The notes beneath the pieces were generated by a model that ran no database searches, was not told where the DNA came from, and saw nothing but the letters and a program-made list of their open reading frames with translations. Positions 3,268 through 29,978 of a stretch of DNA of 64,000 bases are shown here, piece by piece. The DNA comes from Anaerolineae bacterium. Its GTDB lineage: Bacteria > Chloroflexota > Anaerolineae > Anaerolineales > E44-bin32. Position 1 is the stretch's first letter, and every line of letters starts with the position of its first letter. Location of the stretch: positions 44,093 to 108,092 of the forward strand of contig BTQZ01000004.1 of NCBI GenBank assembly GCA_036986135.1, written 5' to 3'. Both the position numbers and the translations under genes were made by a program.

Positions 3268-4728
3268 CTAGCCCAAGCCGACCCGCGTATTAAATTCCTT
3301 TATGTGCTGGTCGATCTCCTCGACCTGCCCCTGCGTGGCAGTCCAGTAATCTCGATCGTACCACTGCGCCATGATCTCTTCGTAGGTCCGCCCCTGCTGT
3401 TCCACCCAGGTGAAGTACTTCAGGTTGTGGATCCGGCGCCGATCGGTGTAGCGAAGCTCCAGCAAATTCTCGGTGGTAAGTCCCATTAGATAGCGAGCGA
3501 AATCAGCCGCCGCTTCCAGATCGGTGTACTCACCACGCTCCTGGCTCATCTCCTCCAGGCGGCTTTGATACAGATCCATCGAATCGGTGAGCACGGTGAT
3601 CACGACATCCGAGCTGCCCAGCTCGTAGTATTTGGCGAACTTGATGGCCAAGGATAGGTTGGCGATCCCGGAGAACCCGAGCAGATCGAGCTGCCCTAGG
3701 GTATCCTCGGGCACCCCCTGCGATGCAAGATAGTTCTGGCCGGCGGATTCGTTGAAGAGCCGTGCCAGGTGTACGATCCCGTTGTCGTCCAGGTCGATTA
3801 CCATGTCGGTGTTCTTGACGTTGTGGATCCAGGGCACGTGCTTGTCGCCAATGCCCTCGATGCGATGCGCGCCGAATCCGTTCTCGAGCAATGTTGGGCA
3901 CTGAGAGGCTTCGCCAGCGGCGATCTTGCTTCTCGGAAACTTCTGCTTCAAGAAATCCCCGCAGCCAATCGTGCCCGCCGAGCCGGTCGTGAGCGTGACA
4001 CCGCGATATTCATCGCCGGGGCCGAGCTCCTGCTCGAGCACCTCCAACATGGCATGCCCGGTCACTTCGTAGTGCCAGAGGTAATTCCCGAATTGCTCGA
4101 ACTGGTTGAAGATCATCAGATCTTCTCCCGATTCGCGCAACTCCCAGGTCTTGTCGAAGATCTCCTTCACATTCGATTCGCTTCCGGGGGTCTTGATCAC
4201 CTCTCCCGCTATGTTGGCCAGCCAATCGAAACGTTCTTTGCTCATTCCTTCCGGCAAGATTGCCACCGACTGGCAACCCAGCAAAGCCGAATCGTACGCG
4301 CCTCCCCGGCAGTAGTTGCCGGTGGATGGCCAGACCGCCTTTTGGTTCGTCGGATCGAATTGGCCGGTCACGAGGCTGGGCACGAGACAGCCAAATGCCG
4401 CGCCCACCTTGTGCGCCCCGGTCGGGAACCACTTGCCGACCAATGCCAGGATCCGAGCCTCGACTCCGGTCAGGCTGCTGGGGAATTCGATGTAGTTCAC
4501 TCCCCCAAAACCACCACCGGTTTCAACGGGCTCGTTCTTCCAGCTGATGCGGAAGAGATTCAAAGGGTCCACATCCCACAGCCCGACCTGGCCAAGCCTC
4601 TTGCGGATTCCCTCCGGAATGCTGGCAGGGTCCTTCATCTGGGCGAAGGTGGGGACGACAACGCCGCGCTCCTTTGCGCGGCCGGCGGCTCGCTCGAGCC
4701 GATCCTCGTACATTGTTAAGTCAATCAT
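3268..4728 (-). CDS. Pyridoxal-phosphate-dependent enzyme, tryptophan-synthase-beta/cysteine-synthase superfamily (fold type II), long form
   Basis: 486-aa ORF. The PTGAHKVGAAFG lysine motif and STGNYCRGGAYDSALLG resemble the PLP-lysine and glycine-rich loops of fold-type II enzymes. Exact activity not assignable. Confidence 0.75.
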   Translation of the reverse strand: MIDLTMYEDRLERAAGRAKERGVVVPTFAQMKDPASIPEGIRKRLGQVGLWDVDPLNLFRISWKNEPVETGGGFGGVNYIEFPSSLTGVEARILALVGKWFPTGAHKVGAAFGCLVPSLVTGQFDPTNQKAVWPSTGNYCRGGAYDSALLGCQSVAILPEGMSKERFDWLANIAGEVIKTPGSESNVKEIFDKTWELRESGEDLMIFNQFEQFGNYLWHYEVTGHAMLEVLEQELGPGDEYRGVTLTTGSAGTIGCGDFLKQKFPRSKIAAGEASQCPTLLENGFGAHRIEGIGDKHVPWIHNVKNTDMVIDLDDNGIVHLARLFNESAGQNYLASQGVPEDTLGQLDLLGFSGIANLSLAIKFAKYYELGSSDVVITVLTDSMDLYQSRLEEMSQERGEYTDLEAAADFARYLMGLTTENLLELRYTDRRRIHNLKYFTWVEQQGRTYEEIMAQWYDRDYWTATQGQVEEIDQHIKEFNTRVGLG

Positions 4729-4730: not shown

Positions 4731-5699
4731 TTACCTTTCTGTTTCCGCGACCTCCTCTGGCTCCTCGCGCAGCACGTATAGGGGACGGTTTTTCGCCTCG
4801 TCGTAAAGCCGGCCGATGTACTCGCCGAGAATGCCCAGAGAGATGAGTTGAACGCCTCCCAGAAAAAGAACCGCGATGAGCGTGGTGGCCTGGCCCGAGA
4901 GCTCTGCCCTCCCTGACAGACGAAGATAGATCACTATCGGAATTGCAATAATGGCGAGCACTGCGGAGAAGAAACCAAAATAAGTCGCAAGCTGTAATGG
5001 AAAATAGGAAAAGCCCGTAACGGCATTGATCGCCAGGCGGAGCATCTTGCGGAACGGATACTTCGTCTCTCCCGCCTGGCGTGCGGCGCGCTTGTATGAG
5101 ACGCCGACCTGTCGAAACCCCACCCAGGCGGTCATCGCGCGGGGAAAGCGATGATGCTCGCGCATTTTCTTTAGCGCCTCTACTACCTTCCGGTCCAGCA
5201 AGCGGAAGTCGCCCGCGTTGAGCGGGATTTCAACTTCCGTAATGCTGTTGATCACCCGGTAAAAAACGGCGGCCGTGGCGCGCTTGAACCAGCCTTCCCC
5301 TTCCCGCTCCGTGCGCACGGCGTAGACCACCTCGTAGCCCTCACGCCACTTCTCAGCCAGCTCGGAAATGAGCTCCGGAGGATCCTGCAGGTCGGTGTCG
5401 ATGATCACCACCGCTTGGCCACGGCTGTAGTCCAGCCCGGCCGTCACGGCAATCTGATGTCCAAAGTTGCGGGAGAAGAGCACTGGACGCACACGGTTGT
5501 CCTCAAGGGCCAAGTCGCTGATGATGCTAGAGGAGCCATCCGTGCTGCCGTCATCCACCAGCACAAGCTCCCAGGGCTCTCCTATGGCATCCATGGCGGC
5601 CTGCACCCGGTCGTAGAATTCACGAAGCGTTTCGACTTCGTCGAAGACTGGCCCGACCACCGAGAAAGTCGGCTTTTCGTCTGCTACTTTTGCTTTCAT
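4731..5699 (-). CDS. Family 2 glycosyltransferase, polyprenyl-phosphate sugar transferase type (DPM1/ArnC/GtrB-like) with two C-terminal TM helices
   Basis: VVGPVFDE...LVLVDDGSTDGS and DTDLQDPPE (DxD) motifs, with a C-terminal hydrophobic pair. Confidence 0.9.
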   Translation of the reverse strand: MKAKVADEKPTFSVVGPVFDEVETLREFYDRVQAAMDAIGEPWELVLVDDGSTDGSSSIISDLALEDNRVRPVLFSRNFGHQIAVTAGLDYSRGQAVVIIDTDLQDPPELISELAEKWREGYEVVYAVRTEREGEGWFKRATAAVFYRVINSITEVEIPLNAGDFRLLDRKVVEALKKMREHHRFPRAMTAWVGFRQVGVSYKRAARQAGETKYPFRKMLRLAINAVTGFSYFPLQLATYFGFFSAVLAIIAIPIVIYLRLSGRAELSGQATTLIAVLFLGGVQLISLGILGEYIGRLYDEAKNRPLYVLREEPEEVAETER

Positions 5700-7172: not shown

Positions 7173-8969
7173 TCACATTCCTATGGAATCCACTGAAGCT
7201 CCCTTTCCCTGTCCGTCGAGTCGCACAGGGATCAGCGCTTGTTTCGCCACATCAATCAGTCCTCTATCGGAGAAGCCGGCTTCCGGGATCGAGGGAAGCG
7301 ATATGAAGGAGAGCGTCATAAATGGTGTCTTCAACTGGCATCCCAGAGACGCCGCAGCGGTGCGAACCTTTTCGAGTTGTGTTTCGACCTCGCTGGCCGG
7401 CAGCTCGCTCATCAGGCCCGCTATCGGGAGCGGCAGTCTTTCGAGGATTCTACCTTTCTCTGCAACGACGAAGCCGCCCTGGGATTCTTCCAGGGCTCTT
7501 ACGCACAGGAGCATATCTTCATCATTGGTTCCGACCACAAGAATGTTGTGGTGGTCGTGCGCCACCGACCCGGCGATCGCTCCCCGTTTGAGTCCGAAAC
7601 CCTTCGTCCATCCAACGGCGACATTTCCGTTCTTGCCGTACCGCTCCACGACCGCGAGCTTGAGAACATCGAGCTCAGGCGCGGCCTGCGCCGAGCCATC
7701 CTTGATAGAGAGTTCGGCCTCGCGTAGATGGTTGAAGATCTGATCCGGAACGATCTCGATGACACGCAGTCGCACGGTCGTGCCTTGCGCGGGAAACTCA
7801 AATTCATTGGGCTCGAGATCCGCTAGAACGCGAACCGTCCGCTTCAGCCAGTCAGGGAATTCCTGCGGCTTGAGATCGTCTGTGAGCGAACCGCCCTCTG
7901 CCACGACTCGGCCCCCGACCAGCACCATCTCTGGTCGGATTTCGTCGAGAGACGCGCACAACAGAATGTCGGCGAACCGCCCGGGCGCGATTGCCCCTAT
8001 TAGATGACCCACCCTGAAGTGCTCCGCCGCATTGATCGAAGCAATTTTAATCGCTTGCAGCGGACTCAGACCTAAGCGTATGGCCTCATTGACGTTGTAA
8101 TTGATATGCCCCTCGCGTCGGATATCAGACGGATGCTTATCGTCCGTGCAAAACATGAGGTGGCGCGTGTCAATTTGGCGCTCCAGGACGCCTGCAATCA
8201 AGTCATGCAGGTTCCGCTCTGAGCTACCCTCCCGTATCATGACCGCCATACCGACAGCCAAACGAGCCTCAAGCTGATCGACAGTGACACACTCATGGTC
8301 GTCCGTTATTCCGACAGAGGCGTAGGCCTCAAGTTCCGCGCCTTCCAGGCCGATGGCGTGCCCATTGGCGATCTTTCCGAGCTTTGACGCGGCCAGCACC
8401 TTCTGCAGATGTTCGGCTGACAATCTCAAGACCTTTGAAGGGTCAAGCTCTCCCAGGCTAACAGTTTCGGGCCAGGCAAGGATCCGCTCGACCTGCTTGA
8501 TTCCGAGGTCTCCGCCGGTCGTCTCTAGGCCAGGCGCAGTGGGCACGCGCGACGACACCTGAACGAACATTCGATAAGGTAACTCTTCGACCCCACTGAA
8601 AAAGGCTTCGAGGCCCTCGATACCCGCAACATTAGCCACTTCCATGGGATCGACGAGCAGCGTCGTTGTTCCGGTGGGGACGATGACTTCCGACAGGCTG
8701 GCGGGAGTGAGCAGAGTGCTCTCGATGTGAATGTGAGCATCGATAAACCCAGGGAGCGCGTAGAGCCCTTCCGCTTCGATCGTCTCGCGGGAGGCAGCTT
8801 CACTACTCGGAAAGATTGAGACGATCCGCTCTGCTCGGATTCCGATGTCGGTTTCCGTGACCCGCCCCGAAAACACATCCACGAGTCGCACGCCACGAAT
8901 GAGAAGATCGAGCGGCTCACTGCCCAGCGCAGCGCGAACGCGTGCCTCAAGTGTCGCTAAATTGCTCAT
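7173..8969 (-). CDS. ade: Adenine deaminase family amidohydrolase (copy 1)
   Basis: 598 aa. PGFIDAHIHIESTLLTP...VPTGTTTLLVDPMEVANV matches the adenine deaminase HxH/IES signature and length. Confidence 0.85.
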   Translation of the reverse strand: MSNLATLEARVRAALGSEPLDLLIRGVRLVDVFSGRVTETDIGIRAERIVSIFPSSEAASRETIEAEGLYALPGFIDAHIHIESTLLTPASLSEVIVPTGTTTLLVDPMEVANVAGIEGLEAFFSGVEELPYRMFVQVSSRVPTAPGLETTGGDLGIKQVERILAWPETVSLGELDPSKVLRLSAEHLQKVLAASKLGKIANGHAIGLEGAELEAYASVGITDDHECVTVDQLEARLAVGMAVMIREGSSERNLHDLIAGVLERQIDTRHLMFCTDDKHPSDIRREGHINYNVNEAIRLGLSPLQAIKIASINAAEHFRVGHLIGAIAPGRFADILLCASLDEIRPEMVLVGGRVVAEGGSLTDDLKPQEFPDWLKRTVRVLADLEPNEFEFPAQGTTVRLRVIEIVPDQIFNHLREAELSIKDGSAQAAPELDVLKLAVVERYGKNGNVAVGWTKGFGLKRGAIAGSVAHDHHNILVVGTNDEDMLLCVRALEESQGGFVVAEKGRILERLPLPIAGLMSELPASEVETQLEKVRTAAASLGCQLKTPFMTLSFISLPSIPEAGFSDRGLIDVAKQALIPVRLDGQGKGASVDSIGM

Positions 8970-9050: not shown

Positions 9051-10028
9051 CTAGATTCCTCTCTCCCCACGAATATAGGGAATCCCCAACGCAGCCGGGG
9101 CCCCGAGTCGCTTTCGCAATGCCTCTCCGGAAGCGATCACGAGCACGAGGATTACGAACAGATAGGGCAGCATGTTGGCAAAATAGCTGAGCAACGGGTC
9201 CTGCAGAATGAGATGCGCATCCAATGGCAGCGGTGGAGCGCCCTGTAGATCGAGCGGAAGACGGCGGATCGCGCCGAAGAGGTAGGATCCGAATGCCGCT
9301 CGGAATGGACCCCAACCTGCGAAGATCACAAGACCGAGAGCGATCCAGCCCTGTCCGGCTGTTAGGCCGTCGATCCAAAGCGGAGTGATCGCCAGGCTCA
9401 AGCTGGCCCCGGCCAATCCTGCAAGCAGCCCTCCAACGAACACGTAGAGATACCGCAGCCGGAACACGTTGATCCCCACCGAGTCCGCCGCGGCCGGGTA
9501 CTCGCCTACTGCACGCATGTTTAGGCCCGGCCGCGTTCGATTGATGATGAACCAGGCGATTGGCACCATGATGAAACCCAGATAGACGATGACGTTGTGT
9601 TGAAAAAAGATCTGCCCTAGCACTGGGATCTGCCCGAGCAGCGGGATATCCAGCGCGGGCAAGCGCGGGGCATCCCGAACATCCACCAGAGACCAACCAA
9701 TCACTGAGCTGAGGCCCGCCCCGACAAAGGTGAGCGCAAGCCCGCTCACCACCTGATCGGCCCGCAAGGTGATCGAGGCTAGCGCGTGAAGCAGGCTCAT
9801 TAGACCGCCTACAATCATCCCCACTAACAAGGCAATCCACGGATCCCCGAGGGTGTGTGACACAAGAAATGCGGTCACTGCCCCCATCAACATCATGCCC
9901 TCGACGCCGAGGTTTATCACACCGGCGCGCTCGGCAAAGAGCTCGCCAATCGTTGCAAACAGCACCGGAGTGCCCGAGGCCACACCCGCGGCAAGGATGG
10001 TTGTGATGAAGATCAGGTAGTTGCTCAC
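9051..10028 (-). CDS. ABC transporter permease, nucleoside/simple-sugar type (YufQ/NupQ-like)
   Basis: 325-aa polytopic protein. ATIGELFAERAGVINLGVEGMM is the conserved N-terminal motif of BMP-system permeases. 4-nt overlap with the upstream permease gene. Confidence 0.9.
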   Translation of the reverse strand: MSNYLIFITTILAAGVASGTPVLFATIGELFAERAGVINLGVEGMMLMGAVTAFLVSHTLGDPWIALLVGMIVGGLMSLLHALASITLRADQVVSGLALTFVGAGLSSVIGWSLVDVRDAPRLPALDIPLLGQIPVLGQIFFQHNVIVYLGFIMVPIAWFIINRTRPGLNMRAVGEYPAAADSVGINVFRLRYLYVFVGGLLAGLAGASLSLAITPLWIDGLTAGQGWIALGLVIFAGWGPFRAAFGSYLFGAIRRLPLDLQGAPPLPLDAHLILQDPLLSYFANMLPYLFVILVLVIASGEALRKRLGAPAALGIPYIRGERGI

Positions 10029-11194
10029 TGGCCCCCTCCCGCCGCCGCGGACTGCGTAACAGACTCGCTGCGCTCGATTCGCACGCGGTACCGCAGGAGA
10101 AGCTCACCGCCCACCACGACAAACAGAATCACGCCATTCAGCATGGACACGATGCCGAACGGTTGAATCTCGTCGCCGCCTACCAGCAGTCCGCCGAAAA
10201 GATAGGCTACCAAAACCACCCCCCAGGGGTTGAGTTTTGCAAGCCAGGCGACGATGATGGCCGTAAACCCGTATCCGGGAGAGATGCGCTCTTGAAAGAT
10301 GTGAATGACGCCGGAGACCTCGCCCATTCCTGCCAGCCCAGCCAGGCCGCCACTGATCAGCATCACCAGCAGGATGTTGCGTTTGATATTCATGCCTGCA
10401 TAGCGTGCGGCTTCAGGATTATCTCCAATGACCTTGATCTCGTAGCCGAACTTGCTTTTGCGCAGCACGTACCAAAGGATGAAGGCGGCCGCGAGGCCGA
10501 TCAGGATTCCGGCATGCGCAGTCAGTCCTCGCAGAATGGAGAATTGGTCGGCGAACTCAGTCAGCCGCGGCAGCCACGCAGTCCGCGGAAACTTCGGCGT
10601 CAATCCAAAGCCACGCAGCGACCACGGCCCGTAGATGAAGAAGTTGTTCCAAAACGCGGCCACGTAGTTCAGCATCAGAGTGGTGATGATGAGATTCACG
10701 CCTAACCAAGCCTTCAGTGCACCGGGAACCGCGCCGTAAAGTCCTCCTGCCAGGAAGGCAGCCAGCATCATTGCGGGGATCATGATGAAAGCCGGCGTAT
10801 CCGGGCTGAGCAGCTTGAGTGCCACGCCGGTCGCTGCCCAGGCTCCAATCAGGAGCTGGCCCTCCGCGCCGATGTTCCACAGCTGCATGCGAAAAGCGAG
10901 CGCGACGCTGAGACCAGCCAGCAGCAGTGGCGTGGCCTTGATGGTCGTATCGGACAGCGGATAGAGCTCACCTCTCAGCCAGCCGGCAGGTGTGCCGAAG
11001 GCGGCCCGGAAGATGCGAGAATACGCCACGAAAGGGCTGACTCCCACGATCGATAGCAGCACCCCACCGACGATCAACGCGCCGATCACCAGGACGACGG
11101 GGGAGAGGATCGAGAGCCAGCGCGGATTGTCCAGGCGCTTTTGGATGCGGATGCGGTATGGAAACCGTTCGGCGATCGAGCTCTGAGCGCTCAT
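10025..11194 (-). CDS. ABC transporter permease, nucleoside/simple-sugar type (YufP/NupP-like)
   Basis: 389-aa polytopic protein. LWNIGAEGQLLIGAW motif. Adjacent to the ATPase and second permease. Confidence 0.9.
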   Translation of the reverse strand: MSAQSSIAERFPYRIRIQKRLDNPRWLSILSPVVLVIGALIVGGVLLSIVGVSPFVAYSRIFRAAFGTPAGWLRGELYPLSDTTIKATPLLLAGLSVALAFRMQLWNIGAEGQLLIGAWAATGVALKLLSPDTPAFIMIPAMMLAAFLAGGLYGAVPGALKAWLGVNLIITTLMLNYVAAFWNNFFIYGPWSLRGFGLTPKFPRTAWLPRLTEFADQFSILRGLTAHAGILIGLAAAFILWYVLRKSKFGYEIKVIGDNPEAARYAGMNIKRNILLVMLISGGLAGLAGMGEVSGVIHIFQERISPGYGFTAIIVAWLAKLNPWGVVLVAYLFGGLLVGGDEIQPFGIVSMLNGVILFVVVGGELLLRYRVRIERSESVTQSAAAGGGQ

Positions 11195-11200
11195 TTTCAG

Positions 11201-12751
11201 CTATCCGGCTTTGACATTGTGAGCTGTTCGCGTGCCGGCCATCATCAGACCGATTTCCTCGATATCGGCACCTTCAGCGCTCATCTCGCCCATGATTTGG
11301 CCCTCGTAGATCACGGCAATGCGGTCGGCCAGCGCCATGATCTCGTCCAGATCTTCGGAAATCATAAGAATGGCGGCGCCTTCGTCTCGCTGCTCCAACA
11401 AGATGCGATGCACGGCTTCGGTGGCGCCCACGTCCAATCCGCGAGTGGGCTGCATGGCAACCAGCATTGCAGGAGCTCCGGATATCTCTCGCGCCAGGAT
11501 AAGCTTCTGTAAATTGCCGCCCGAAAGCAGTCGTGAGGGAGTTTCAATTGAGGGAGTGGCAATGTCGAATTCGTCAACGAGTTTCTCGGCCTGCTCGCGC
11601 ATGGCGACGAGATTCATCACCCATCCGTTCCCAATCGGCGGGATGCGGTAATTCCGTAAGGCCAAGTTCTCGGATATGTTCATGTTGGGAACACTGCCCA
11701 TTCCCACTCGGTCCTCGGGAACGAAAGATAGTCCCGCCTCGAGCACATGGCTGGGCGAAGCGTTCGTAACTTCGCGACCCTGCGCGATGACCGATCCTCC
11801 CGTCGCCTCGCGCAGCCCTGTAACTGCTTCGGCAAGCTCTCTCTGACCGTTCCCCGACACTCCCGCCAGGGCAAGGATTTCACCAGTACGCACCTCCAGC
11901 GATATCCCCTTCAGAGCCGGAAGACCCTTGTCGTCAAGGGCCTGGAGGTTCCTGATCTCTAGAATGGGCTCGCCGGGAGTCGCGGCCTTTCGATCGATGC
12001 GGAACAAAACCTCTCGTCCCACCATGAGCCTTGCCAGATCCTTCTTCGTCACTCCTTCGAGGTCAATGCCGCTGGACACCATGCGCCCGAGTCGCAAGAC
12101 GCTGATCCGATCCGCGATCTCGAGTACTTCGTGCAACTTGTGGCTGATGAAGATGATCGTCTTGCCAGAGCTCGCCATCTCACGCAGCGTGTGGAAGAGC
12201 TCCTCCACCTCTTGAGGCGTAAGCACCGCTGTGGGCTCGTCCATAATGAGGATGTTGGCTCCCCGGTAGAGCATCTTCAAGACTTCCACTCGCTGCTGCT
12301 CACCTACGGAGAGTTGCCAGATCTTGGCACGCGGATCGACGCTGATGTTGAACCGCTGGCTGAGCGCTTCCACCTCCGCCTCGATCTTCTGGGGGCGGAG
12401 AAGAAATCGAGCTTCATCCAATCCCAGAACTAGATTCTCGGCAACGGAGAGGACGGGTACCAACATGAAATGCTGATGGATCATTCCGATGCCGTCATGG
12501 ATGGCGTCCTTCGGCGATCCAAAGGTGACCTTTGCTCCGTCTACATAGATCTCACCCTCGTCCGGGTGATAAAGCCCGGAGAGGATGTTCATGAGCGTGC
12601 TCTTGCCCGCCCCGTTCTCGCCCAGCAGTGCGTGCACTTCCCCCGCTCGAACGTCAAGGTCGACGCGATCGTTGGCTAACACGCCGGGGAAGCGCTTGAC
12701 GATGCCTCGCATTTCAACGGCGAGGCGGTTCTCGCTCACGGCTGCATTCAA
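11201..12751 (-). CDS. ABC transporter ATP-binding protein with duplicated ATPase domains (YufO/NupO-like)
   Basis: 516 aa. Walker A GENGAGKST, signature LSVGEQQRVEVLK, and a second signature LSGGNLQKLILAREI. Confidence 0.95.
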   Translation of the reverse strand: MNAAVSENRLAVEMRGIVKRFPGVLANDRVDLDVRAGEVHALLGENGAGKSTLMNILSGLYHPDEGEIYVDGAKVTFGSPKDAIHDGIGMIHQHFMLVPVLSVAENLVLGLDEARFLLRPQKIEAEVEALSQRFNISVDPRAKIWQLSVGEQQRVEVLKMLYRGANILIMDEPTAVLTPQEVEELFHTLREMASSGKTIIFISHKLHEVLEIADRISVLRLGRMVSSGIDLEGVTKKDLARLMVGREVLFRIDRKAATPGEPILEIRNLQALDDKGLPALKGISLEVRTGEILALAGVSGNGQRELAEAVTGLREATGGSVIAQGREVTNASPSHVLEAGLSFVPEDRVGMGSVPNMNISENLALRNYRIPPIGNGWVMNLVAMREQAEKLVDEFDIATPSIETPSRLLSGGNLQKLILAREISGAPAMLVAMQPTRGLDVGATEAVHRILLEQRDEGAAILMISEDLDEIMALADRIAVIYEGQIMGEMSAEGADIEEIGLMMAGTRTAHNVKAG

Positions 12752-12767
12752 CTCCTGGAGTGAAAGG

Positions 12768-12804
12768 ATACCGGACAGGTCCGCGTCACGGACCTGTCCG
12801 GTAT
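12768..12804 (-). promoter_or_regulatory. Perfect 16-bp stem-loop between the binding-protein gene and the ATPase gene
   Basis: ATACCGGACAGGTCCG (12768..12783), loop CGTCA, CGGACCTGTCCGGTAT (12789..12804). It sits in the 91-nt gap of an otherwise tight operon. Confidence 0.6.
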
Positions 12805-12842
12805 CTGTTTTCTAACGACCTGCTTCCCGCTTGCAGAATCGA

Positions 12843-14108
12843 CTACCCACCCGACATTGCAGGGATCTCAGCCTCTGGCAGGAATCCCTCTACGAGAAAG
12901 TTCATGCAAATCTGGCACGGCTCGCGGTCGAGTCCGAAGCTATCGATCGTAGCCTGGTCGAGTCCCTCAAGATCTTCCTGAGTTGGCACTACTCCCTCGG
13001 CGATGACAAGGTTGCCCTTGTTGTCGTAGATTGGACCCGTAAACAGATCGAAGCGGTCGAACTCGCCGCTCTGCATCTCGGCCCATTTCTCCTCTACCAA
13101 GGGGATCACCCAATCGGGCACAGCATCAGGAAACTCACCGTCGGTCAGGCCCAGCAGGCCGACGATACCGCTCTCCGCACCCGGATACCAGTCTGAGGGC
13201 GTCCACGTTCCAGCCTGGACTTCTTTGATGAATTCCTCATAGGCCACGCCCCAGTTCCAGTAGGGAACCGTCAGGCAGGCCTCGGGATCGGCGTCGCATG
13301 AGGTATTGCTGTCATAGGCAATTCCCCACAGTCCACGCTCACCGGCGGCCTGGACCGGCCCCGGCGTGTCCGCACCCGTCACGACCACTGTGGCCCCTGC
13401 GTCGAGCAGCGATTCACCGGCTTGGATTTCCTTGTCGGGATCGAACCAGGTGAAGATCCAGCGCACGTCGACCTCACACTCGGGGCAAGTCTCGCGCACA
13501 CCCATCGTTAGGGCATTACTCAACCGAACCACTTCCGCGATCGGCCAGGGTGCGATGTAGCCAACACGGTTGCTCCCGTCTTCCTTGGCGCGCGCACCTG
13601 CGACCATCCCGGCCAAGAACTTGGTCTGCTCCATCGCTCCGAACAGATTTCCAAAGTTTTCGTCGTTCTTCAGGAATCCCGACACGTGCAAGAAGGCGGT
13701 GTCTGGAAACTCTTCAGCTATCTCGGGCATCGGGAATTGGAACTCGAAGCTGGTAGCGATGATGGCATCAAAGCCTTTGCGCGCCAGGTTGCGCATGACC
13801 CGAGCCGCGTCCGCCTCAGAGAGGATGGACTCCAGATAGACGGTGTGAACGTTGTCTACATTCTGCTCTAGGTACTCTCGACCCTGATTGTGGGCATAGG
13901 TCCACCCAGCATCGCCGATCGGCCCTATGTACACGAACGCCACATTAGTCTTGCCTTCCTCGGGTTCGGGCAGCGTGATGGTCACGTCATCCCCGAATCC
14001 CGAGACCGTGATCTCCTCTGGTGTAGCCGGCTCCTGGGCGCACGCCGCAACCAGCAGCCCGCCGACCAACAGCACAGTGATAGCTAGCCCCGCTTTGTGT
14101 CTCATCAT
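12843..14108 (-). CDS. BMP-family (PnrA/Med-like) ABC substrate-binding lipoprotein, probable purine nucleoside binding
   Basis: 421 aa. Lipobox LLVAAC. FVYIGPIGDAGWTYAHNQG and GFDAIIATSFEF resemble the basic-membrane-protein family. Confidence 0.85.
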   Translation of the reverse strand: MMRHKAGLAITVLLVGGLLVAACAQEPATPEEITVSGFGDDVTITLPEPEEGKTNVAFVYIGPIGDAGWTYAHNQGREYLEQNVDNVHTVYLESILSEADAARVMRNLARKGFDAIIATSFEFQFPMPEIAEEFPDTAFLHVSGFLKNDENFGNLFGAMEQTKFLAGMVAGARAKEDGSNRVGYIAPWPIAEVVRLSNALTMGVRETCPECEVDVRWIFTWFDPDKEIQAGESLLDAGATVVVTGADTPGPVQAAGERGLWGIAYDSNTSCDADPEACLTVPYWNWGVAYEEFIKEVQAGTWTPSDWYPGAESGIVGLLGLTDGEFPDAVPDWVIPLVEEKWAEMQSGEFDRFDLFTGPIYDNKGNLVIAEGVVPTQEDLEGLDQATIDSFGLDREPCQICMNFLVEGFLPEAEIPAMSGG

Positions 14109-14205: not shown

Positions 14206-15153
14206 TCAAGGGACTATTCGGGTCCCCGTCTTGCCGGCGAGCGCTCGCTCGATATTGTCCGGATCTGTCACCAGGGCTTCTTTGCCCCCAGCCTCCAGGT
14301 ATTTGATGATCGCCTGTACCTTAGGCTCCATACTTCCTTTGGCAAAATGGCCCTGCTCCATGTAAGCCTTGGCTTCTGCCAAGGTCACCTTGTCCAACCA
14401 CAGCTGATCTGGCTGGTTATAGTTTAACGCAATCTGCGGGACTGCTGTCGAGATAAGAAGCAAATCGGCTCCGATCTGAGAGGCCAGCAATGCGGACGCA
14501 AAGTCCTTGTCGATGACCGCCTCGACTCCAGCTAGATATCCCGCCTCGTCTTGAACAACGGGAATTCCACCGCCTCCCACGGCGATCACGACAAAGCCAT
14601 CTCCAATGAGCGACTCGATCGCCTCCCGCTGAACGATCCGCACCGGCAACGGTGAAGGTACAATCCGGCGCCATCCTCGGCCGGCGTCTTCCACCACGAC
14701 CCATCCTTCGGCATCCACCCGTCGATTGGCGGTCGACTCATCCATGAAGGATCCGATCGGCTTTGTGGGCGCCTCGAAGGCCGGGTCGTTGCGGTCCACG
14801 AGCACCTGAGTGACCACGGTGGCTGCCTGCTTCTCGATTCCGCGTCGCGTGAACTCATTGTAGAGCGACTGCTGGAACATATAGCCAATGGCGCCCTGGC
14901 TGTCGGCGCCGCAGTAGTCCAGCGGCACCTCGTGAAGCTCATGCTTTGCGAGCTCGGATCGCCTGAGAATGAAGCCCACTTGCGGCCCGTTGCCGTGGGT
15001 AATCACCACATCCCAGTCATCTTCGATCATGCCCGCGATGTGCTTCATTGACTCGGCCGCCGCTTCGTACTGGTCCTGAACGGTCTTGTGTCCCTTGTCC
15101 TTGATCAGCGAGTTGCCGCCGACGGCGACCACCGCCACTTTTTTCTCTGCCAA
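14206..15153 (-). CDS. arcC: Carbamate kinase
   Basis: 315 aa. VVAVGGNSL...VITHGNGPQVG...GGGGIPV motifs and typical length. Confidence 0.9.
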   Translation of the reverse strand: MAEKKVAVVAVGGNSLIKDKGHKTVQDQYEAAAESMKHIAGMIEDDWDVVITHGNGPQVGFILRRSELAKHELHEVPLDYCGADSQGAIGYMFQQSLYNEFTRRGIEKQAATVVTQVLVDRNDPAFEAPTKPIGSFMDESTANRRVDAEGWVVVEDAGRGWRRIVPSPLPVRIVQREAIESLIGDGFVVIAVGGGGIPVVQDEAGYLAGVEAVIDKDFASALLASQIGADLLLISTAVPQIALNYNQPDQLWLDKVTLAEAKAYMEQGHFAKGSMEPKVQAIIKYLEAGGKEALVTDPDNIERALAGKTGTRIVP

Positions 15154-15172: not shown

Positions 15173-16153
15173 TCACTTCATCGTCAGTGCCATGACCGCC
15201 TTTTGTACGTGCAGGCGGTTCTCGGCTTCGTCGAATACCACGCTCTGCGGTCCGTCGATCACCGCATCCGTCACCTCGACATTACGGTCGGCCGGCAGCG
15301 GATGCATATAGATCGCGTCCTTATGGGCCAGCGACATCTTGCGTTCGTCCGTGATCCAACTCTCGTATTGATCCTGGATTTGTTTGCCTTCGTCAGGATC
15401 CTGCGTAGTCAGCAGCGGGCCCCAGGACTTGGCGTACACCACTTCCGCCCCCTCAAAGCCGGCTTCCATATCCTCCACAACCTTAAATTTCGTCCCGGCC
15501 CTTTCCGCCTCGGCCTGCGCCTGTTCCATTACATCCTGCATCAACTTGAACTCCGGTGGATGGGCCAGGGTGAGATCCAAGCCGAAGCGCGGCATTTGCA
15601 GGATCAGCGATTGCGGGACGGAGACCGGCTTCAAATACGAAGCGGCATAGGCCCAGGAAACGACCATCTTAACCCCGCGCAGATCAGGACCCTTTTTCTC
15701 TTGAATGGTCATGAGATCGGCCAGGATCTGGAAGGGATGGTAGGTTTCGCACTGCATGTTGAGCACCGGCACACGGGCAGCGTTCGCGACGAAGTTCAGA
15801 TACTGGTTCCCCACTCCCCAGTCCACGTGCCGGATGGCGATGCCGTCGAAGTACCGTCCGAAGATATCGCCGATCTCTCGCTCGGTGTCGCCGTGCGCGA
15901 TCTGTGTGGTCTTGGATTCAATGAAGGCCGCGTGCCCGCCCAGCTGCGCCATTCCCGATTCAAATGAACCGCGCGTGCGCGTGCTGCTGAAGAAAAACAG
16001 CATGGCAAGCGTCTTATCGCGCAAATAGGCGTGCGGCTCGCCCAGCGCCCGCTTGCGCTTGAGGTCATAGGCCACATCCAGAACGGTCTCCACCTCTTCT
16101 TTGCTGAAATCCAGGTCGCCGATCAGATCGCGGCCTCTTAGGTCAGTCTGCAT
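15173..16153 (-). CDS. Carbamoyltransferase of the OTC/ATC superfamily, non-canonical (neither ornithine nor putrescine motifs)
   Basis: 326 aa. The carbamoyl-phosphate motifs are present (FFFSSTRTRGSFE, HPFQ). The OTCase DxxxSMG position reads VVYAKSWGPLL and HCLP reads MHPLPA. Confidence 0.8.
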   Translation of the reverse strand: MQTDLRGRDLIGDLDFSKEEVETVLDVAYDLKRKRALGEPHAYLRDKTLAMLFFFSSTRTRGSFESGMAQLGGHAAFIESKTTQIAHGDTEREIGDIFGRYFDGIAIRHVDWGVGNQYLNFVANAARVPVLNMQCETYHPFQILADLMTIQEKKGPDLRGVKMVVSWAYAASYLKPVSVPQSLILQMPRFGLDLTLAHPPEFKLMQDVMEQAQAEAERAGTKFKVVEDMEAGFEGAEVVYAKSWGPLLTTQDPDEGKQIQDQYESWITDERKMSLAHKDAIYMHPLPADRNVEVTDAVIDGPQSVVFDEAENRLHVQKAVMALTMK

Positions 16154-16285
16154 GTGCTCAACCTCTCCCGTCTCATCTGCCTGGCGTTCGCGTAGATGGC
16201 TATGCGCAGTCGACTATTGCGCCGGCCGGTCTATTCCGGAATCCCATATCCTTTCGTGGTGGAGTCAGCCCTGTGGAGATCTCCC

Positions 16286-17236
16286 CTACTCCATCGCCCC
16301 CAAAACGAGTGAAAGCAGCGCCATTCTCATCACCACCCCATTGAAGGCCTCTTCCCAGTAGCGTGCGTGCCGCGTGTAGTCCACCTCTTCCAGCAGCTCA
16401 TCCATGCGAGGCAGGGAGTGCAGGATGATCGAATCTCCCTTGGCCTTCTTCATGAGCTCCCTGGTCACCTGATAGTTCGCGGGTGTCATGCCCACCTCAC
16501 CCGTGCGCTCATCGCGTGACTTAGTGTAGTCCGGCTGTACCACCGGCTCCATATAGATCACGTCCGCCTTGTCGATGACCTGCTCAATGTGCTCGATTTC
16601 ATCGTACTCCAGGTTGAGCTCATCGATTTCTACCTTGAACTCGTCGGTCAGCGACATGTCCTCCGGGGCGATGTAGCTGGCGCTGATATCGAACTGGCTC
16701 ATTGCATAGCTCATGGAATGCATGGTGCGCATGCGCATGTCACCGACCAAAACGAAATGCAGGCCGTCCAGCGTGCCTTTCTCTTTCAAGATGGTGTACA
16801 TGTCCGTAAGCACTTGCGTCGGATGTTCTCCCCAGCCATCTCCAGCGTTGATCACTGGCACGCTGGCCCACTTCGCGGCCTCTGCGGGCGCACCCTGCTC
16901 GAAGTGGCGCATCACGATCACATCGCCGTAATACTCCAGCATGTGCACCGTGTCCTTGATTGATTCCTGATAGAAATCACCGGCGCGGGTCATCTTGGCG
17001 TCGGCGAAGCCGGTAACCTCGCCACCCAGCCGCAGCATGGCCGCCTCGTGGGCCAGACGCGTGCGTGTACTGGGTTGGTAAAAGGCGGTGACCAGGATCT
17101 TTCCGGCCAATAGATCTGAATTCCGTCGATCACGCGCGATATGGGCCAATCGATCTGCGGTCTCGAACACGCGGAAATACTCCGCACGCTCAAAGCCCTT
17201 CAGCGAAAGAATGTCTCGTCCTGCAAAGCTTCTCAT
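16286..17236 (-). CDS. Aspartate-carbamoyltransferase-like protein, non-canonical second-substrate site
   Basis: 316 aa. QPSTRTRLAHE and EHPTQ are present. The ATCase segment D(I/V)LYMTRVQKER reads DVIYMEPVVQPDY, and HPLPR reads HSLPR. Confidence 0.8.
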   Translation of the reverse strand: MRSFAGRDILSLKGFERAEYFRVFETADRLAHIARDRRNSDLLAGKILVTAFYQPSTRTRLAHEAAMLRLGGEVTGFADAKMTRAGDFYQESIKDTVHMLEYYGDVIVMRHFEQGAPAEAAKWASVPVINAGDGWGEHPTQVLTDMYTILKEKGTLDGLHFVLVGDMRMRTMHSMSYAMSQFDISASYIAPEDMSLTDEFKVEIDELNLEYDEIEHIEQVIDKADVIYMEPVVQPDYTKSRDERTGEVGMTPANYQVTRELMKKAKGDSIILHSLPRMDELLEEVDYTRHARYWEEAFNGVVMRMALLSLVLGAME

Positions 17237-17285: not shown

Positions 17286-18002
17286 TTAGGCTGCGGTGCT
17301 CAGACCGCGTCCGACCCGCCGAACGACATGAAACTTGAACGTGCCGGGCCGAAAATAGCTCTGGGATCGATCCACGACCTGCCCGTCCTTGGTAAATAGA
17401 CTAGCTTCGAACCGAAGCAGCACGGATCCTGCCGGAACTCCCAGCCGCTCGGCGACCTGCCCTTCAGCGGACACCGCGCTAATCTCACTTTTCGAATACT
17501 CCAGCGCCGGCTCTCCACGCTCCAACAGTAGATCCAAAACGGAGCCGTGAAATTCCTTGGCCAGCACGGCGTCAGGAATCAGGTCTTTCCCGATAGTGTC
17601 AACTAGGTAGGCCACAGTTTCCCCCTCCGCTAGAATGTCGCGTGAGATCTCAATCACCTGATCGACTCCCAGCAGCTGAGCCTCCTCCGGATCTGAGCTG
17701 CGGTGCAGGATCTCGGAATCTCCCATTTCCACCTCCAGGCCCACCCTGGCCGCCATTGTCTCGATGCTTATCAGCTCTTCCAAGCCGGCTTCGATAACCG
17801 TCGGTGGCACATAGGTTCCTACCCCTTGACGCCGCACGATCAGCCCGCGATCCTCGAGGGCGCTCATAGCTTCCCGCAGTGTGGGACGCGAGACGCCCAA
17901 CTGCTCTGCCAGCCTCGGTTCGGAGGGAAGAACTTCTCCCGGCTCGCTTCGCTCAAGCAGCTCTGCCAACGCGTGCGCGGTACGTTGATAAGGTTTGCTC
18001 AT
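17286..18002 (-). CDS. GntR-family transcriptional regulator, HutC subfamily (UTRA effector domain)
   Basis: 238 aa. LPSEPRLAEQLGVSRPTLREAMSALEDRGLIVRRQGVGTYV winged-helix motif. 4-nt overlap with the upstream ade copy 2. Confidence 0.9.
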   Translation of the reverse strand: MSKPYQRTAHALAELLERSEPGEVLPSEPRLAEQLGVSRPTLREAMSALEDRGLIVRRQGVGTYVPPTVIEAGLEELISIETMAARVGLEVEMGDSEILHRSSDPEEAQLLGVDQVIEISRDILAEGETVAYLVDTIGKDLIPDAVLAKEFHGSVLDLLLERGEPALEYSKSEISAVSAEGQVAERLGVPAGSVLLRFEASLFTKDGQVVDRSQSYFRPGTFKFHVVRRVGRGLSTAA

Positions 18003-19774
18003 CTGCTCTCGTCTATCAGCGGCACGACTTCGAAGCGATTCACATCGACCAGACCGAGGTCGGAGATCCGTAGCTCAGGGATCACGACCAGAGCAAGCAG
18101 ACTCAGCTGCATATTGGCACTATTCAGGGTGCAGCCACATTTCCGAAATGCCTCAAGCAGTCTGGCGGCCTTTCCCGCTACCACTTCTGCAGGCTCATCC
18201 GACATCAAGCCCGCGATGGGCAGCTCAACCAGCGCAATGACCTCGCCGTTGCGCACCACGATCTGGCCGCCCCCCACTCTAGCCAACTCATTGGCCGCCA
18301 GCGCCATGTTGCCGTCATCCGTACCCACTACCAGCATGTGATGAGAGTCGTGGGCGACGGTAGAAGCCACTGCGCATCCTTGGTCCAGGCCAAACCCTTG
18401 GACTAGCCCGAGCTGAACCGTTCCGTTGCCGCGATGCCTCTCGACAAGAGCAAGCTTGGCTAGATCCGCTTCAACGTCCGCCTCTAGGACGCCATTTTGC
18501 GGCTTCAGATCCGCATGCAGATGCTCCGTACGTGCCTGATTTTCATTAACGCCGATGACGTTGGCAGTGACTGGTCCATTGCTTGGTGCGCTCAGCTTGA
18601 AGTCAGCCGCGATCAGTTCTCTCTTCAGGTGAACCGATCCTCGCACTTCCGCTGGGTAGGCAAAATCCGGTGGATCGACCAGGATCTTCCCCTCCTGTAC
18701 CGCCACAAGTCCCTTGGCGATCACGATCTCGACTTCGAATTCGCTAAGTTCGCCAACCAGAAGCAGATCGGCATAGCGTCCCGGTGCGATCTGACCCACA
18801 TCGGTTGACACCCCGAAATGCTCCGCAGTATTGAGAGTGGCCATCTGAATGGCCGTCATCGGCTCCACGCCCTGGTCGATGGCGTGTCGCACGACTCGGT
18901 CCATATGGCCCTCGTGAACCAGCGTGCCGGAATGAATGTCGTCTGTTACCAGGATGAAATGGCGAGAATCGAGCCCGAGCTCAGTCACGGCCCGGATCTG
19001 CTCGGCCACGTCATGCCACGCGGAGCCGAGTCGCATAAAGACCTTCATGCCCTGACGGACTCGGGCCACCGCATCCTCAATGCGTGTACCTTCGTGATCA
19101 TCTTCCGGGCCGCCGGCGACATAGGCGTGGAATGGAATTCCCAGATCGAACGAGGCGTAGTGGCCGCCGGCTACTCTGCGGGCGGCGCGGGCCTCTGCCA
19201 TCTCGGCATGCAAACGCTGGTCGCCTGCGATCACGCCGGGGACGTTCATCATCTCCCCAAGCCCGATGATGCCTGGCCAGCTCAACGCCTGAGCCACTTC
19301 ATGCGGCCCGATCTTGGCTCCCGCGGTTTCCAACCCGGGCGCCGATGGGACGCAAGACGGCATCTGCACCCACACGTGGATCGGCTGCAAAGCGGCCTCA
19401 TCCACCATCATGCGCACCCCATCCAGTCCAAATATGTTCGCGATTTCGTGTGGATCGATAAAGATGCCGGTCGTCCCGTGCGGAAGGACCGCCTGCACAA
19501 ACTGCGTGATGGTAAGCATGCCAGATTCAATGTGCATGTGCCCATCCAGCAGTCCAGGTACGGCGTGCCGACCCTCGGCCTCTATGATGAGCGTCTCATC
19601 GCCGATGGTGTGCCCGGCATCTTCCCCGACGTAGGCAATCCGCTGGCCGCTGATGGCGATTTGCGTGTCGTCCAGGATCTCACCGGACTGCACGCACACC
19701 CAGCGCGCGCCAAGCACGACCATGTCCGCCGGTTTGCGGCCCATGGCGACATCGACGAGGTGCTTTGACTGCAT
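17999..19774 (-). CDS. ade: Adenine deaminase family amidohydrolase (copy 2)
   Basis: PGLLDGHMHIESGMLT...LPHGTTGIFIDPHEIANI. I prefer the ATG at 19774 (MQSKHLVDV...) over the GTG at 19834 given in the ORF track. The start is uncertain. Confidence 0.85.
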   Translation of the reverse strand: MQSKHLVDVAMGRKPADMVVLGARWVCVQSGEILDDTQIAISGQRIAYVGEDAGHTIGDETLIIEAEGRHAVPGLLDGHMHIESGMLTITQFVQAVLPHGTTGIFIDPHEIANIFGLDGVRMMVDEAALQPIHVWVQMPSCVPSAPGLETAGAKIGPHEVAQALSWPGIIGLGEMMNVPGVIAGDQRLHAEMAEARAARRVAGGHYASFDLGIPFHAYVAGGPEDDHEGTRIEDAVARVRQGMKVFMRLGSAWHDVAEQIRAVTELGLDSRHFILVTDDIHSGTLVHEGHMDRVVRHAIDQGVEPMTAIQMATLNTAEHFGVSTDVGQIAPGRYADLLLVGELSEFEVEIVIAKGLVAVQEGKILVDPPDFAYPAEVRGSVHLKRELIAADFKLSAPSNGPVTANVIGVNENQARTEHLHADLKPQNGVLEADVEADLAKLALVERHRGNGTVQLGLVQGFGLDQGCAVASTVAHDSHHMLVVGTDDGNMALAANELARVGGGQIVVRNGEVIALVELPIAGLMSDEPAEVVAGKAARLLEAFRKCGCTLNSANMQLSLLALVVIPELRISDLGLVDVNRFEVVPLIDESR

Positions 19775-19914
19775 GTGGATGGTGTCTGCTTCTAAGCGGG
19801 GGTGCCCAAAAGGAGAGGATCCTCGGCTTTGCACCCCAGGTTCGGGTCAGTCTAACACCGGCACAAAGAGTGGTCAATTGTCAGACAACCCGCCGGGGGA
19901 TGCGCAAAGTCACT

Positions 19915-27188: not shown

Positions 27189-28043
27189 ATGATAGCAGCA
27201 GCCTTAATTGGCTTGCGTGAGGGCCTGGAAGCCGCCCTGATTGTCGGAATCGTGCTGGGGTACCTGCGCAAGATAGGTTACTTGGAGGGACGGAGGTCCG
27301 TCTGGTTGGGGGTATTTGCAGCGGTTTTGGCCAGCCTGGGGCTGGGCTTCATCATCCAATTGCTGGGGCTGGGATTGGAAGGTCGGGCTGAGGTGATCTT
27401 TGAAGGCACCACCATGTTCTTGGCCGTCGGCGTACTGACCTGGATGATTTTCTGGATGCGTAACCAAGCGCGCCTCGTCAAGACCTCCCTCGAGCGGAAT
27501 GTTCAAGACGCAGTCAAGACTGGAACAAAATGGGGGGTCATACTCGTCGCCTTCATTGCGGTGTTCCGCGAAGGGGTCGAGACAGTGCTCTTTCTGTCTG
27601 CGGCCGCATTTGCGTCTGATGGCCAAGGGACACTGATCGGCGCCATTCTGGGACTTGCGACGGCGATCTTGATTGGAGCCCTGATCTATGCTTCAACCCC
27701 TCAGCTGAGCATCCGTCTCTTCTTCAACATCACCAGCGTGCTGTTGCTGCTATTTGCTGCCGGATTGCTGGCGCATGGGATCCAAGAGTTTCAGGGGGCG
27801 GGGCTCATTCCAACCGTCAACGCACATGTTTGGGACACCAACAATGTCTTGGACGAAAACTCCTCCCTGGGCCAGATGCTTTCAGCGGTATTTGGCTATA
27901 ACGGCAACCCCTCCTTAGAGGAGGTGGTTGCGTACTTCGGTTACTGGATCGCCGTACTGTTGGGTCTGCGCTTGTGGATGGATAGGCGTTTCGCGTCGAA
28001 GCTAGAGCAGGCCTCAGCTGTAACTTCCGAGCTCAAACAATAA
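27189..28043 (+). CDS. FTR1/EfeU-family high-affinity iron permease
   Basis: 284 aa, 7 TM. Two REGxE motifs (LREGLEAAL and FREGVETVL). Confidence 0.9.
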   Translation: MIAAALIGLREGLEAALIVGIVLGYLRKIGYLEGRRSVWLGVFAAVLASLGLGFIIQLLGLGLEGRAEVIFEGTTMFLAVGVLTWMIFWMRNQARLVKTSLERNVQDAVKTGTKWGVILVAFIAVFREGVETVLFLSAAAFASDGQGTLIGAILGLATAILIGALIYASTPQLSIRLFFNITSVLLLLFAAGLLAHGIQEFQGAGLIPTVNAHVWDTNNVLDENSSLGQMLSAVFGYNGNPSLEEVVAYFGYWIAVLLGLRLWMDRRFASKLEQASAVTSELKQ

Positions 28044-28050
28044 AGCTGGG

Positions 28051-28075
28051 GCTGTCTCAAAAGACAGCTTCATTC
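28051..28075 (+). terminator. Terminator-like hairpin just after the FTR1 gene
   Basis: GCTGTCT-CAAA-AGACAGC (28051..28068) followed by TTCATTCC. Confidence 0.4.
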
Positions 28076-28161
28076 CTTATTGGTGGGGAAAGCACTCCTT
28101 CATGACCCAGGAATCGCGGCCCCCATGGCACTAAGGTGCCGCCTTATCGCGAATAAATTGG

Positions 28162-29964: not shown

Positions 29965-29978
29965 GCGGAGAGGCAACC

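Follow-up and report, generated by a model that had tools for sequence, protein, structure and literature searches.

We analysed a 64,000-nucleotide stretch of DNA from the metagenome-assembled genome of an Anaerolineae bacterium (Chloroflexota; contig BTQZ01000004.1, positions 44,093 to 108,092; hereafter the window), in which two neighboring minus-strand genes, atcL and otcL, encode carbamoyltransferases next to a carbamate kinase. Both open reading frames are intact, and each protein has both Pfam domains, PF02729 and PF00185. Their carbamoyl-phosphate sites are kept, and their second-substrate sites depart from those of aspartate carbamoyltransferase (ATCase) and ornithine carbamoyltransferase (OTCase). 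Our preferred reading is that the pair represents a novel and widespread version of the catabolic carbamoyltransferase/carbamate kinase theme, with a link to anaerobic purine degradation. The three genes and the motifs discussed below lie as follows.

16286..17236, minus strand: atcL, a 316-residue ATCase-like "pseudo-ATCase" with the carbamoyl-phosphate site intact and the aspartate site replaced
16961..16990, minus strand: atcL 80s loop TRAGDFYQES (residues 83-92), where S80/K83/K84 of ATCase become R84/D87/Y89
16523..16549, minus strand: atcL 240s-loop signature EPVVQPDYT (residues 230-238), standing for TRxQxER of ATCase
16406..16420, minus strand: atcL HSLPR (residues 273-277), standing for HPLPR
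15173..16153, minus strand: otcL, a 326-residue compact carbamoyltransferase of the N-acetylornithine carbamoyltransferase (AOTCase)/YgeW (knotted) type, with a YgeW-like second-substrate site
15728..15760, minus strand: otcL NMQCETYHPFQ (residues 132-142), with Q134 equivalent to YgeW Q160 (AOTCase E144) and H139/Q142 forming the HPxQ motif
15410..15442, minus strand: otcL VVYAKSWGPLL (residues 238-248), replacing DxxxSMG of OTCase, with K242 equivalent to AOTCase K252 and YgeW K270
15287..15307, minus strand: otcL MHPLPAD (residues 283-289), with HPLP for HCLP and D289 equivalent to YgeW D334
14206..15153, minus strand: carbamate kinase, 315 residues, 19 bp downstream of otcL

We aligned atcL with MAFFT and HMMER to E. 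coli PyrB and the P. abyssi ATCase. The carbamoyl-phosphate site of ATCase (S52-T55, R105, H134, and Q137) and R167 are all conserved: S52/T53/R54/T55 as STRTR (residues 56-60), R105 in VMRH, H134/Q137 in HPTQ, and R167 in MRT, with L267 kept as well. Other positions have changed, including S80 to R84, K83 to D87, K84 to Y89, Q133 to E137, T228 to E230, R229 to P231, and P266 to S274 (in HSLPR). The K84 and S80 contributed by the 80s loop of the neighboring subunit in ATCase are thus absent. HMMER pairs Q231 with V233, whereas MAFFT pairs it with T238 and places a five-residue insertion, VQPDY. An earlier note on this DNA, made by eye, had read the aspartate-ligand segment as YMEPVVQPDY and HPLPR as HSLPR; both alignments agree, and the segment, YMEPVVQPDYTK, is the same as in that first reading. 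The RxQxER motif (R229, Q231), stated to be in all known ATCases (PMC4581275), is not found in atcL, where the loop is EPVVQPDYTKSR. With these changes, the site for the β-carboxylate of aspartate is gone while the α-carboxylate ligand R167 is kept. Invariant acidic or neutral residues stand in for the cationic ligands of the β-carboxylate (D87, Y89, E137, E230, and P231, plus D236), and the resulting pocket would suit an α-N-carbamoyl amino acid whose side chain is cationic or neutral.

The atcL protein passes the NCBIfam model TIGR00670 (256.5, cut-off 236.95) and fails NF002032 (232.3, cut-off 263). Among solved structures, the ATCase of P. abyssi comes nearest (1ml4, 1.2e-72), E. coli PyrB is 36.5% identical, and an NCBI protein from an Anaerolineae metagenome-assembled genome is 100% identical; the 64-kb window has no second ATCase homologue. 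Compared with these enzymes, atcL has the same fold and carbamoyl-phosphate site, including R105 and R167, but K84, R229, and Q231 are replaced, the 240s loop has the five-residue insertion, HSLP stands for HPLP, and the gene context is catabolic. We assessed conservation in 79 atcL and 64 otcL sequences from 80 genomes. E230, P231, V232, D236, Y237, and T238 are invariant in the 79 atcL sequences, and the family signature comprises TRAGDxYQES, GDGWGEHPTQ, GDMRMRTMHS, EPVVQPDYT, and HSLPRMDE. Because the deviating residues of both proteins are invariant or at least 90% conserved across these sets, they are not the product of chance or decay. The atcL protein is at least 74% identical across the 80 best genome loci. 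A HMMER scan of 1.84 billion representatives recovered two full-length 50%-cluster representatives of the atcL clade at 76-78% identity; next came a gap, and at 50% identity or below stood diverse pseudo-ATCases with a (T/S)RAGD loop, with canonical ATCases at about 40%.

Among known systems, atcL fits the pseudo-ATCases described by Barba et al. in 2013 (PMC4016543). Like them, atcL keeps STRT and HPTQ, alters HxLP (to HSLP), loses RxQ, and is annotated as ATCase. Its setting is likewise purine-catabolic, with a YgeW-type gene and a carbamate kinase adjoining. The group 1 protein Rxyl_2847 was shown to phosphorolyse allantoate, and the group 2 protein of Nocardioides JS614 lies beside a ygeW homologue, xdhABC, and hyuA (PMC4016543). 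Judged by the published motifs, the PVV or PV..T of atcL matches none of the subgroup motifs (AIA/AIS/SIA, GX[SC], and VXP) cleanly. Judged in the same way, atcL agrees with group 2 in context and in H[ST]LP, but its RxQ position is PVV or PVT rather than GX[SC]. The nearest pseudo-ATCase outside the clade, P0260 on a Logan contig, is 47% identical to atcL and has a similar ESVVRPDYT/HSLP site. Its neighbors encode an aminotransferase, an HMGL-like enzyme, and regulators that carry BTAD/NB-ARC and GerE domains, which suggests a biosynthetic use of the same scaffold.

The otcL protein has STRTR and HPFQ, so that both genes keep the carbamoyl-phosphate site in the tool alignments, as the earlier note had stated. 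D231, S235, and M236 of E. coli ArgI (DxxxSMG) correspond to K242, P246, and L247 in VVYAKSWGPLL, HCLP is HPLP, and C273, N167, and K53 (of FxKxSxRT) are P285, S178, and F55. The earlier note was right about the two replaced motifs, with one correction: AKSWG is not a degenerate OTCase loop but the normal motif of the knotted class formed by AOTCase, N-succinylornithine carbamoyltransferase (SOTCase), and YgeW, and bears a conserved lysine (PMC4581275). Scores for otcL are below every curated NCBIfam cut-off for OTCase (NF001986, 255 against 306; TIGR00658, 245 against 281), AOTCase (NF003384, 267.5 against 288), putrescine carbamoyltransferase (PTCase), and YgeW, the last by a wide margin (NF005538, 184 against 453; TIGR03316, 174 against 500). 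Its blastp identities are 41% with the AOTCase of X. campestris, 34% with YgeW of E. coli, and 29% with ArgI. The AOTCase (3kzc, 2e-59) is the best overall match, and the two have in common the AKSWG lysine (K252, kept as K242), a proline-rich loop, and the C-terminal AENRLHVQKA. However, otcL lacks the extended 80s loop with W77, where it has a nine-residue deletion; AOTCase E144 is Q134, C294 is P285 (HCLP becoming HPLP), and no arginine-biosynthesis neighbors were found.

The second-substrate site of otcL follows that of YgeW. Seven of the eight residues proposed for YgeW (PMC4581275) are conserved, namely Q98 (Q84), Q160 (Q134), S200 (S172), K203 (K175), K270 (K242), D334 (D289), and E344 (E293), and they are near-invariant in the 64 otcL sequences; the eighth, D124, falls in a gap. 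AOTCase departs from YgeW at five of these seven positions. Along with these residues, otcL shares with YgeW, the knotted 2,3-diureidopropionate carbamoyltransferase of the E. coli/C. sporogenes reductive uric-acid pathway, the NxQC-HPxQ block, LPAD, and a proline-rich SY-KP-SVPQ loop, in which WAYAASYLKPVSVPQS aligns with YgeW WAYSPSYGKPLSVPQG. Unlike YgeW, it has no extra N- or C-terminal helices, no extended 240s-loop insert, and no ISGVSC insert; its residue at C330 is Pro, and D124 has no counterpart. An extended 120s loop goes with the proline-rich loop in the sequence signature of the trefoil knot; in otcL the 120s loop is of intermediate length. We would best describe otcL as a compact, probably knotted, YgeW-like enzyme. 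As in the YgeW/YqeA arrangement, otcL is followed by a carbamate kinase, here 48% identical to E. coli YqeA and above both family cut-offs (NF009007, 411 bits, cut-off 266; TIGR00746, 380 bits), and relatives link otcL to SsnA, HyuA, YgeY, and xanthine dehydrogenase (XDH). It differs from that arrangement in that otcL is always accompanied by a second carbamoyltransferase. Alignment against the ATCase, OTCase, AOTCase, and YgeW families showed that the motif columns had been assigned correctly by eye. With otcL below all cut-offs and atcL lacking RxQxER, the earlier prediction that the second substrates are neither ornithine nor aspartate is supported.

Next, we examined how widely the pair occurs. 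A search of a one-genome-per-species collection, using atcL-specific peptides as patterns, found atcL encoded in at least 583 stretches (a minimum), mostly from Anaerolineae. Other carriers, at about 75% identity, are long contigs labelled Acidimicrobiia, Thermoleophilia, Actinomycetota, Verrucomicrobiae, and Phycisphaerales. Gene neighborhoods were compared in the 80 best atcL loci, 45 of which have at least 5 kb on both sides (long-flank loci). Among these 45, otcL lies by atcL in 42 and a genuine YgeW in only one (L052, NF005538 615 bits); therefore, atcL accompanies a YgeW-type enzyme and does not substitute for it. A carbamate kinase is present in 43, a GntR regulator in 38, an ABC importer in 33, an 8-oxoguanine-deaminase-type gene also in 33, and thrCL, encoding a threonine-synthase-like enzyme, in 29. 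The pair plus kinase is a conserved module and no one-off curiosity. Two such orphans beside a carbamate kinase had been called unusual, which does not hold at this frequency. Nor are the proteins wholly orphan, given the resemblance of atcL to pseudo-ATCases, the YgeW-type residues of otcL, and the uric-acid context described below. In every public source the proteins go under the names ATCase and OTCase/AOTCase, and to judge from their active-site motifs, both clades are systematically mis-annotated. On this scale, and with atcL even above an equivalog cut-off, such naming would mislead metabolic reconstructions of pyrimidine and arginine biosynthesis for these lineages. Our literature search found no paper characterizing a second carbamoyltransferase of the diureidopropionate pathway or the atcL/otcL gene pair.

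The reductive uric-acid (2,8-dioxopurine) pathway was established by two 2025 studies. After the reduction of urate, SsnA and HyuA open both rings, which yields 2,3-diureidopropionate. YgeW phosphorolyses one ureido group, YqeA then makes ATP from the carbamoyl phosphate (PMC12507026; bioRxiv 10.1101/2025.04.24.650524), YgeY hydrolyses the second ureido group, and YgeX turns 2,3-diaminopropionate into pyruvate. A Chloroflexota variant with an F420-dependent luciferase-like reductase was noted by Li et al. (PMC12507026), and the context of the trio in relatives of the window matches this variant. Locus L073 encodes an F420 luciferase-like oxidoreductase, YgeY, atcL, otcL, carbamate kinase, SsnA (523 bits), XDH subunits, and a HyuA-type hydantoinase (487 bits). 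L062 combines HyuA, Ade, atcL, otcL, carbamate kinase, thrCL, a GT2 glycosyltransferase, PALP2 (a distant CysK/CBS-like pyridoxal phosphate [PLP] enzyme), SsnA (505 bits), and F420 genes. L068 has YgeY (470 bits), atcL, and XDH; a YgfK-like gene is present in L080, L067, and L075, and XDH and/or SsnA-like genes in L059 and L065. Co-location with genes of the uric-acid pathway was recognized in L073, L062, L068, L080, L067, L059, L052, L160, L137, and L116.

A reciprocal scan from SsnA gave two patterns. Metagenome loci showed the order XDH-PALP2-thrCL-SsnA-F420 luciferase-like reductase (LLM), and L160, L137, and L116 showed ABC-thrCL-GT2-PALP2-(HyuA)-SsnA-LLM-XdhD. In two Chloroflexota loci (L109, 11524-16869; L062, 13637-15099), SsnA is followed by an F420_oxidored gene, a CofE-type ligase, a nitroreductase-like gene, CofD, CofC, and then a luciferase-like F420 oxidoreductase. 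Most relatives also carry an 8-oxoguanine-deaminase-type gene between folD and ade1, the first of two adenine-deaminase-family genes (for example, L011 5872-7287; NF006055 686 bits, cut-off 532). The window does not, and its folD-ade1 spacing is 311 bp. The product of 8-oxoguanine deaminase is urate.

We consider it moderately probable that atcL, otcL, and the carbamate kinase form an energy-conserving decarbamoylation module in a Chloroflexota variant of the anaerobic reductive uric-acid pathway. The substrates, order of steps, and ATP yield would then be as follows. Purines would be supplied by the adenine-deaminase-like genes and a BMP-family ABC importer. The otcL enzyme would phosphorolyse one of the two ureido groups in 2,3-diureidopropionate. 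The 3-ureido group is the likeliest target, an assignment based on analogy to AOTCase, which acts on side-chain nitrogens of N-α-acylated amino acids, and on the YgeW assignment of Liu et al. The atcL enzyme, built on an ATCase scaffold directed at the α-nitrogen, would phosphorolyse the remaining 2-ureido group, that of 3-amino-2-ureidopropanoate, a step taken in E. coli by the hydrolase YgeY. R167 is retained here, and the side-chain pocket is predicted to be acidic, with D87, E137, E230, and D236 where ATCase has K83, Q133, T228, and the R229 region. The carbamate kinase would convert the two carbamoyl phosphates into two ATP plus NH3 and CO2, and thrCL and/or PALP2 would deaminate 2,3-diaminopropionate to pyruvate, releasing ammonia.

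A stronger form of the proposal is tentative, and we hold it as possible but doubtful in its entirety. It would have a fully phosphorolytic route from 2,3-diureidopropionate to 2,3-diaminopropionate, with two new transcarbamylase specificities (an ATCase-derived one for the 2-(N-α)-ureido group and a minimal knotted YgeW-like one for the 3-ureido group), twice the ATP per urate of the E. coli YgeW/YgeY system, and ThrC-like and CysK-like PLP enzymes in place of diaminopropionate ammonia-lyase. A natural system with two carbamoyltransferases, on α-N and side-chain-N scaffolds, offers a direct handle on the disputed order and regiochemistry of ureido cleavage. Under the main proposal, Chloroflexota that are abundant in the environment would obtain two ATP from each purine through substrate-level phosphorylation. 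The energetic logic, ureido phosphorolysis to carbamoyl phosphate and ATP via carbamate kinase, is common to the arginine and agmatine deiminase pathways (PMC4581275), which differ in having a deiminase or antiporter, one carbamoyltransferase rather than two, and other second-substrate sites.

Several observations weigh against the proposed module. The regiochemical assignment is its weakest step, because published papers disagree on which ureido group YgeW removes, with cleavage order and regiochemistry both in dispute (PMC12990295). A tblastn search of the window gave no SsnA, HyuA, XDH, YgeY, YgfK, or YgeX, and the pathway reductase is also missing, so the link to the pathway rests on relatives. 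Even there, hallmark genes lie within 10 kb in only about 12 of the 80 atcL loci, and SsnA-centered loci mostly have no carbamoyltransferase within 10 kb. In L073, YgeY occurs alongside both carbamoyltransferases, so atcL is perhaps not a plain substitute for it. Deamination of diaminopropionate would not call for as many as two PLP enzymes, and P0260, with its similar loop, sits in a cluster that looks biosynthetic. Lastly, the AlphaFold2 models of the two proteins, a check that the earlier note had proposed, confirmed the generic folds but are too poor for inspection of the pockets or the knot, with pLDDT (predicted local distance difference test) values of 66.7 and 66.8, active-site loops below 50, and alignments of 27 sequences that are 82-95% identical. 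Foldseek on these models returned only generic OTCase/AOTCase and ATCase folds at root mean square deviations of 6-7 Å, with ATCases as the top matches of atcL.

Other ureido compounds were considered as well. The enzymes might act on further intermediates of purine or pyrimidine breakdown, such as ureidomethyl-hydantoin, 5-ureido-dihydrouracil, or the N-carbamoyl-β-alanine and N-carbamoyl-β-aminoisobutyrate of reductive pyrimidine breakdown. HyuA-type dihydropyrimidinases lie near the pair in L031, L035, L063, L062, and L073, BMP transporters carry nucleosides and bases generally, and L073 has three candidate decarbamoylases (YgeY, atcL, and otcL) for two ureido groups. However, a β-alanine-type substrate predicts that R229/Q231 are kept and R167 is lost, and atcL shows the opposite; we rejected such substrates for atcL, as the carboxylate ligand it retains is the wrong one. 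The close match of the otcL pocket to YgeW also speaks against this explanation, which we regard as rather unlikely (no search aimed at dihydropyrimidine dehydrogenase or β-ureidopropionase was made). A diureide of the oxidative pathway is unlikely, too. In that case, atcL would be a ureidoglycine carbamoyltransferase (UGTCase), converting allantoate and phosphate to ureidoglycine and carbamoyl phosphate like Rubrobacter Rxyl_2847, with otcL acting on oxalurate or ureidoglycolate. Allantoate also has two ureido groups and is described as similar in structure to 2,3-diureidopropionate, and UGTCase is itself a pseudo-ATCase adjoining a carbamate kinase, with an H(T/S)LP motif (PMC4581275) that atcL matches with HSLP. 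Yet the allantoinase context of UGTCase is missing around atcL: the scored cyclic amidohydrolases give 487 and 441 bits to D-hydantoinase/dihydropyrimidinase against 254 and 246 to allantoinase. Linked SsnA, YgfK or F420 reductase, YgeY, and XDH mark the reductive route (uricase and HIU hydrolase were not searched explicitly), and UGTCase is listed with 80s-loop S102*/K106*, while in atcL the corresponding positions of ATCase are occupied by R84/Y89.

Two readings would make the trio anabolic. Carbamoyl phosphate made by the kinase could be used to carbamoylate one or two amines supplied by the PLP enzymes on the way to a metabolite or natural product, for instance turning diaminopropionate into ureido amino acids like albizziin. 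Diaminopropionate and diaminobutyrate transcarbamylases are known in antibiotic pathways, CysK- and ThrC-like enzymes can build amino acids, and P0260 occurs in the setting described above. We find this highly unlikely, as the annotated neighbors include no nonribosomal peptide synthetase, polyketide synthase, or tailoring genes but instead an importer, deaminases, a catabolic-type regulator, and uricolytic genes, and the wide, tightly conserved clade fits core catabolism. If the database names were right, the pair would be the aspartate and ornithine carbamoyltransferases that the organism uses for biosynthesis, supplied by a carbamate kinase of anabolic type. This has almost no probability in our estimate, despite the uniform annotation and the TIGR00670 equivalog match of atcL (256.5 vs 236.95). 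We rejected these canonical roles on motif evidence: atcL has neither RxQxER nor K84 and fails NF002032 (232 vs 263), and otcL fails every OTCase and AOTCase cut-off and lacks DxxxSMG and AOTCase E144/W77. Furthermore, no pyr or arg genes are among the annotated neighbors, and the genes around the pair encode a GntR/UTRA regulator, an importer, and purine deaminases.

The trio is part of a row of 13 minus-strand genes at about 3.2-19.9 kb, with small gaps or overlaps between neighbors and folD upstream. The remaining features of the row are listed here.

19849..19877, minus strand: sigma-70-like promoter match upstream of ade1 (a consensus match only)
17999..19834, minus strand: ade1, adenine-deaminase-family amidohydrolase, 611 residues, with a 4-bp overlap with gntR
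17286..18002, minus strand: GntR/UTRA (HutC-type) regulator, 49 bp upstream of atcL
9051..14108, minus strand: BMP/PnrA-family ABC importer, four genes (binding protein 12843-14108, ATPase 11201-12751, permeases 10025-11194 and 9051-10028)
7173..8969, minus strand: ade2, second adenine-deaminase-family amidohydrolase, 598 residues
5913..7160, minus strand: thrCL, threonine-synthase-like PLP enzyme, 415 residues, candidate YgeX replacement
4731..5699, minus strand: GT2 glycosyltransferase between thrCL and PALP2, of doubtful membership in the system
3268..4728, minus strand: PALP2, distant CysK/CBS-like PLP enzyme, 486 residues, candidate YgeX replacement or partner

No E. coli YgeX-like gene was found in the 80 atcL loci, and none is reported in SsnA loci of at least 7 kb; thrCL and PALP2 are candidates to stand in its place. 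The gene at 5913-7160 was considered as a diaminopropionate ammonia-lyase and rejected, as it scores ThrC-like. It passes TIGR00260 (210 against 167) and fails NF006050 (274 against 303). The Arg of the NPxRxEG segment in ThrC binds the substrate phosphate. In the window protein, this residue is Thr, and the column is not conserved across 48 sequences; a real threonine synthase is therefore unlikely. The protein is also extended at its N-terminus by some 55 residues with Cys among them, and it has ASTGNAG and VGDGNI where ThrC has the loops ASTGNTS and VGNAGN. In metagenome loci, thrCL adjoins SsnA. PALP2 scores 63 bits to the best solved structure, with a PLP-lysine motif TGAHK and long N- and C-terminal extensions, and in several phyla it recurs beside SsnA or atcL, conserved at 44-77% identity. 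The GT2 gene (PgfS/ArnC-like) lies 2 bp from PALP2 and between the PLP genes in 25 of the 80 loci, with no obvious purine-catabolic role.

The two amidohydrolases are 36% identical to each other and 38% to the strong adenine deaminase of L062 (631 bits). Both are barely over the TIGR01178 cut-off of 472.5, at 484 and 495 bits for ade1 and ade2, and their true substrates may be other aminopurines.

A promoter and terminator scan of the window came close to shuffled expectation except for one large hairpin, and an Rfam scan gave no riboswitch and no other RNA family. The GC-rich hairpin has a perfect 18-bp stem (12766-12806) and lies in the 91-bp gap between the BMP binding-protein and ABC ATPase genes. 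Its role may be to stabilise or attenuate the transcript and so to determine how much binding protein is made relative to transporter.

Outside the row, 21031-23064 encodes a 677-residue protein with an N-terminus that is Ser/Thr protein kinase-like by eye; it adjoins folD and is also there in several relatives. Farther along, 27189-46015 holds metal-handling genes, including an FTR1 iron permease, two P-type ATPases (one with HMA domains), a cation-diffusion facilitator, and a MacB-type ABC exporter, and this block looks unrelated to the carbamoyltransferases.

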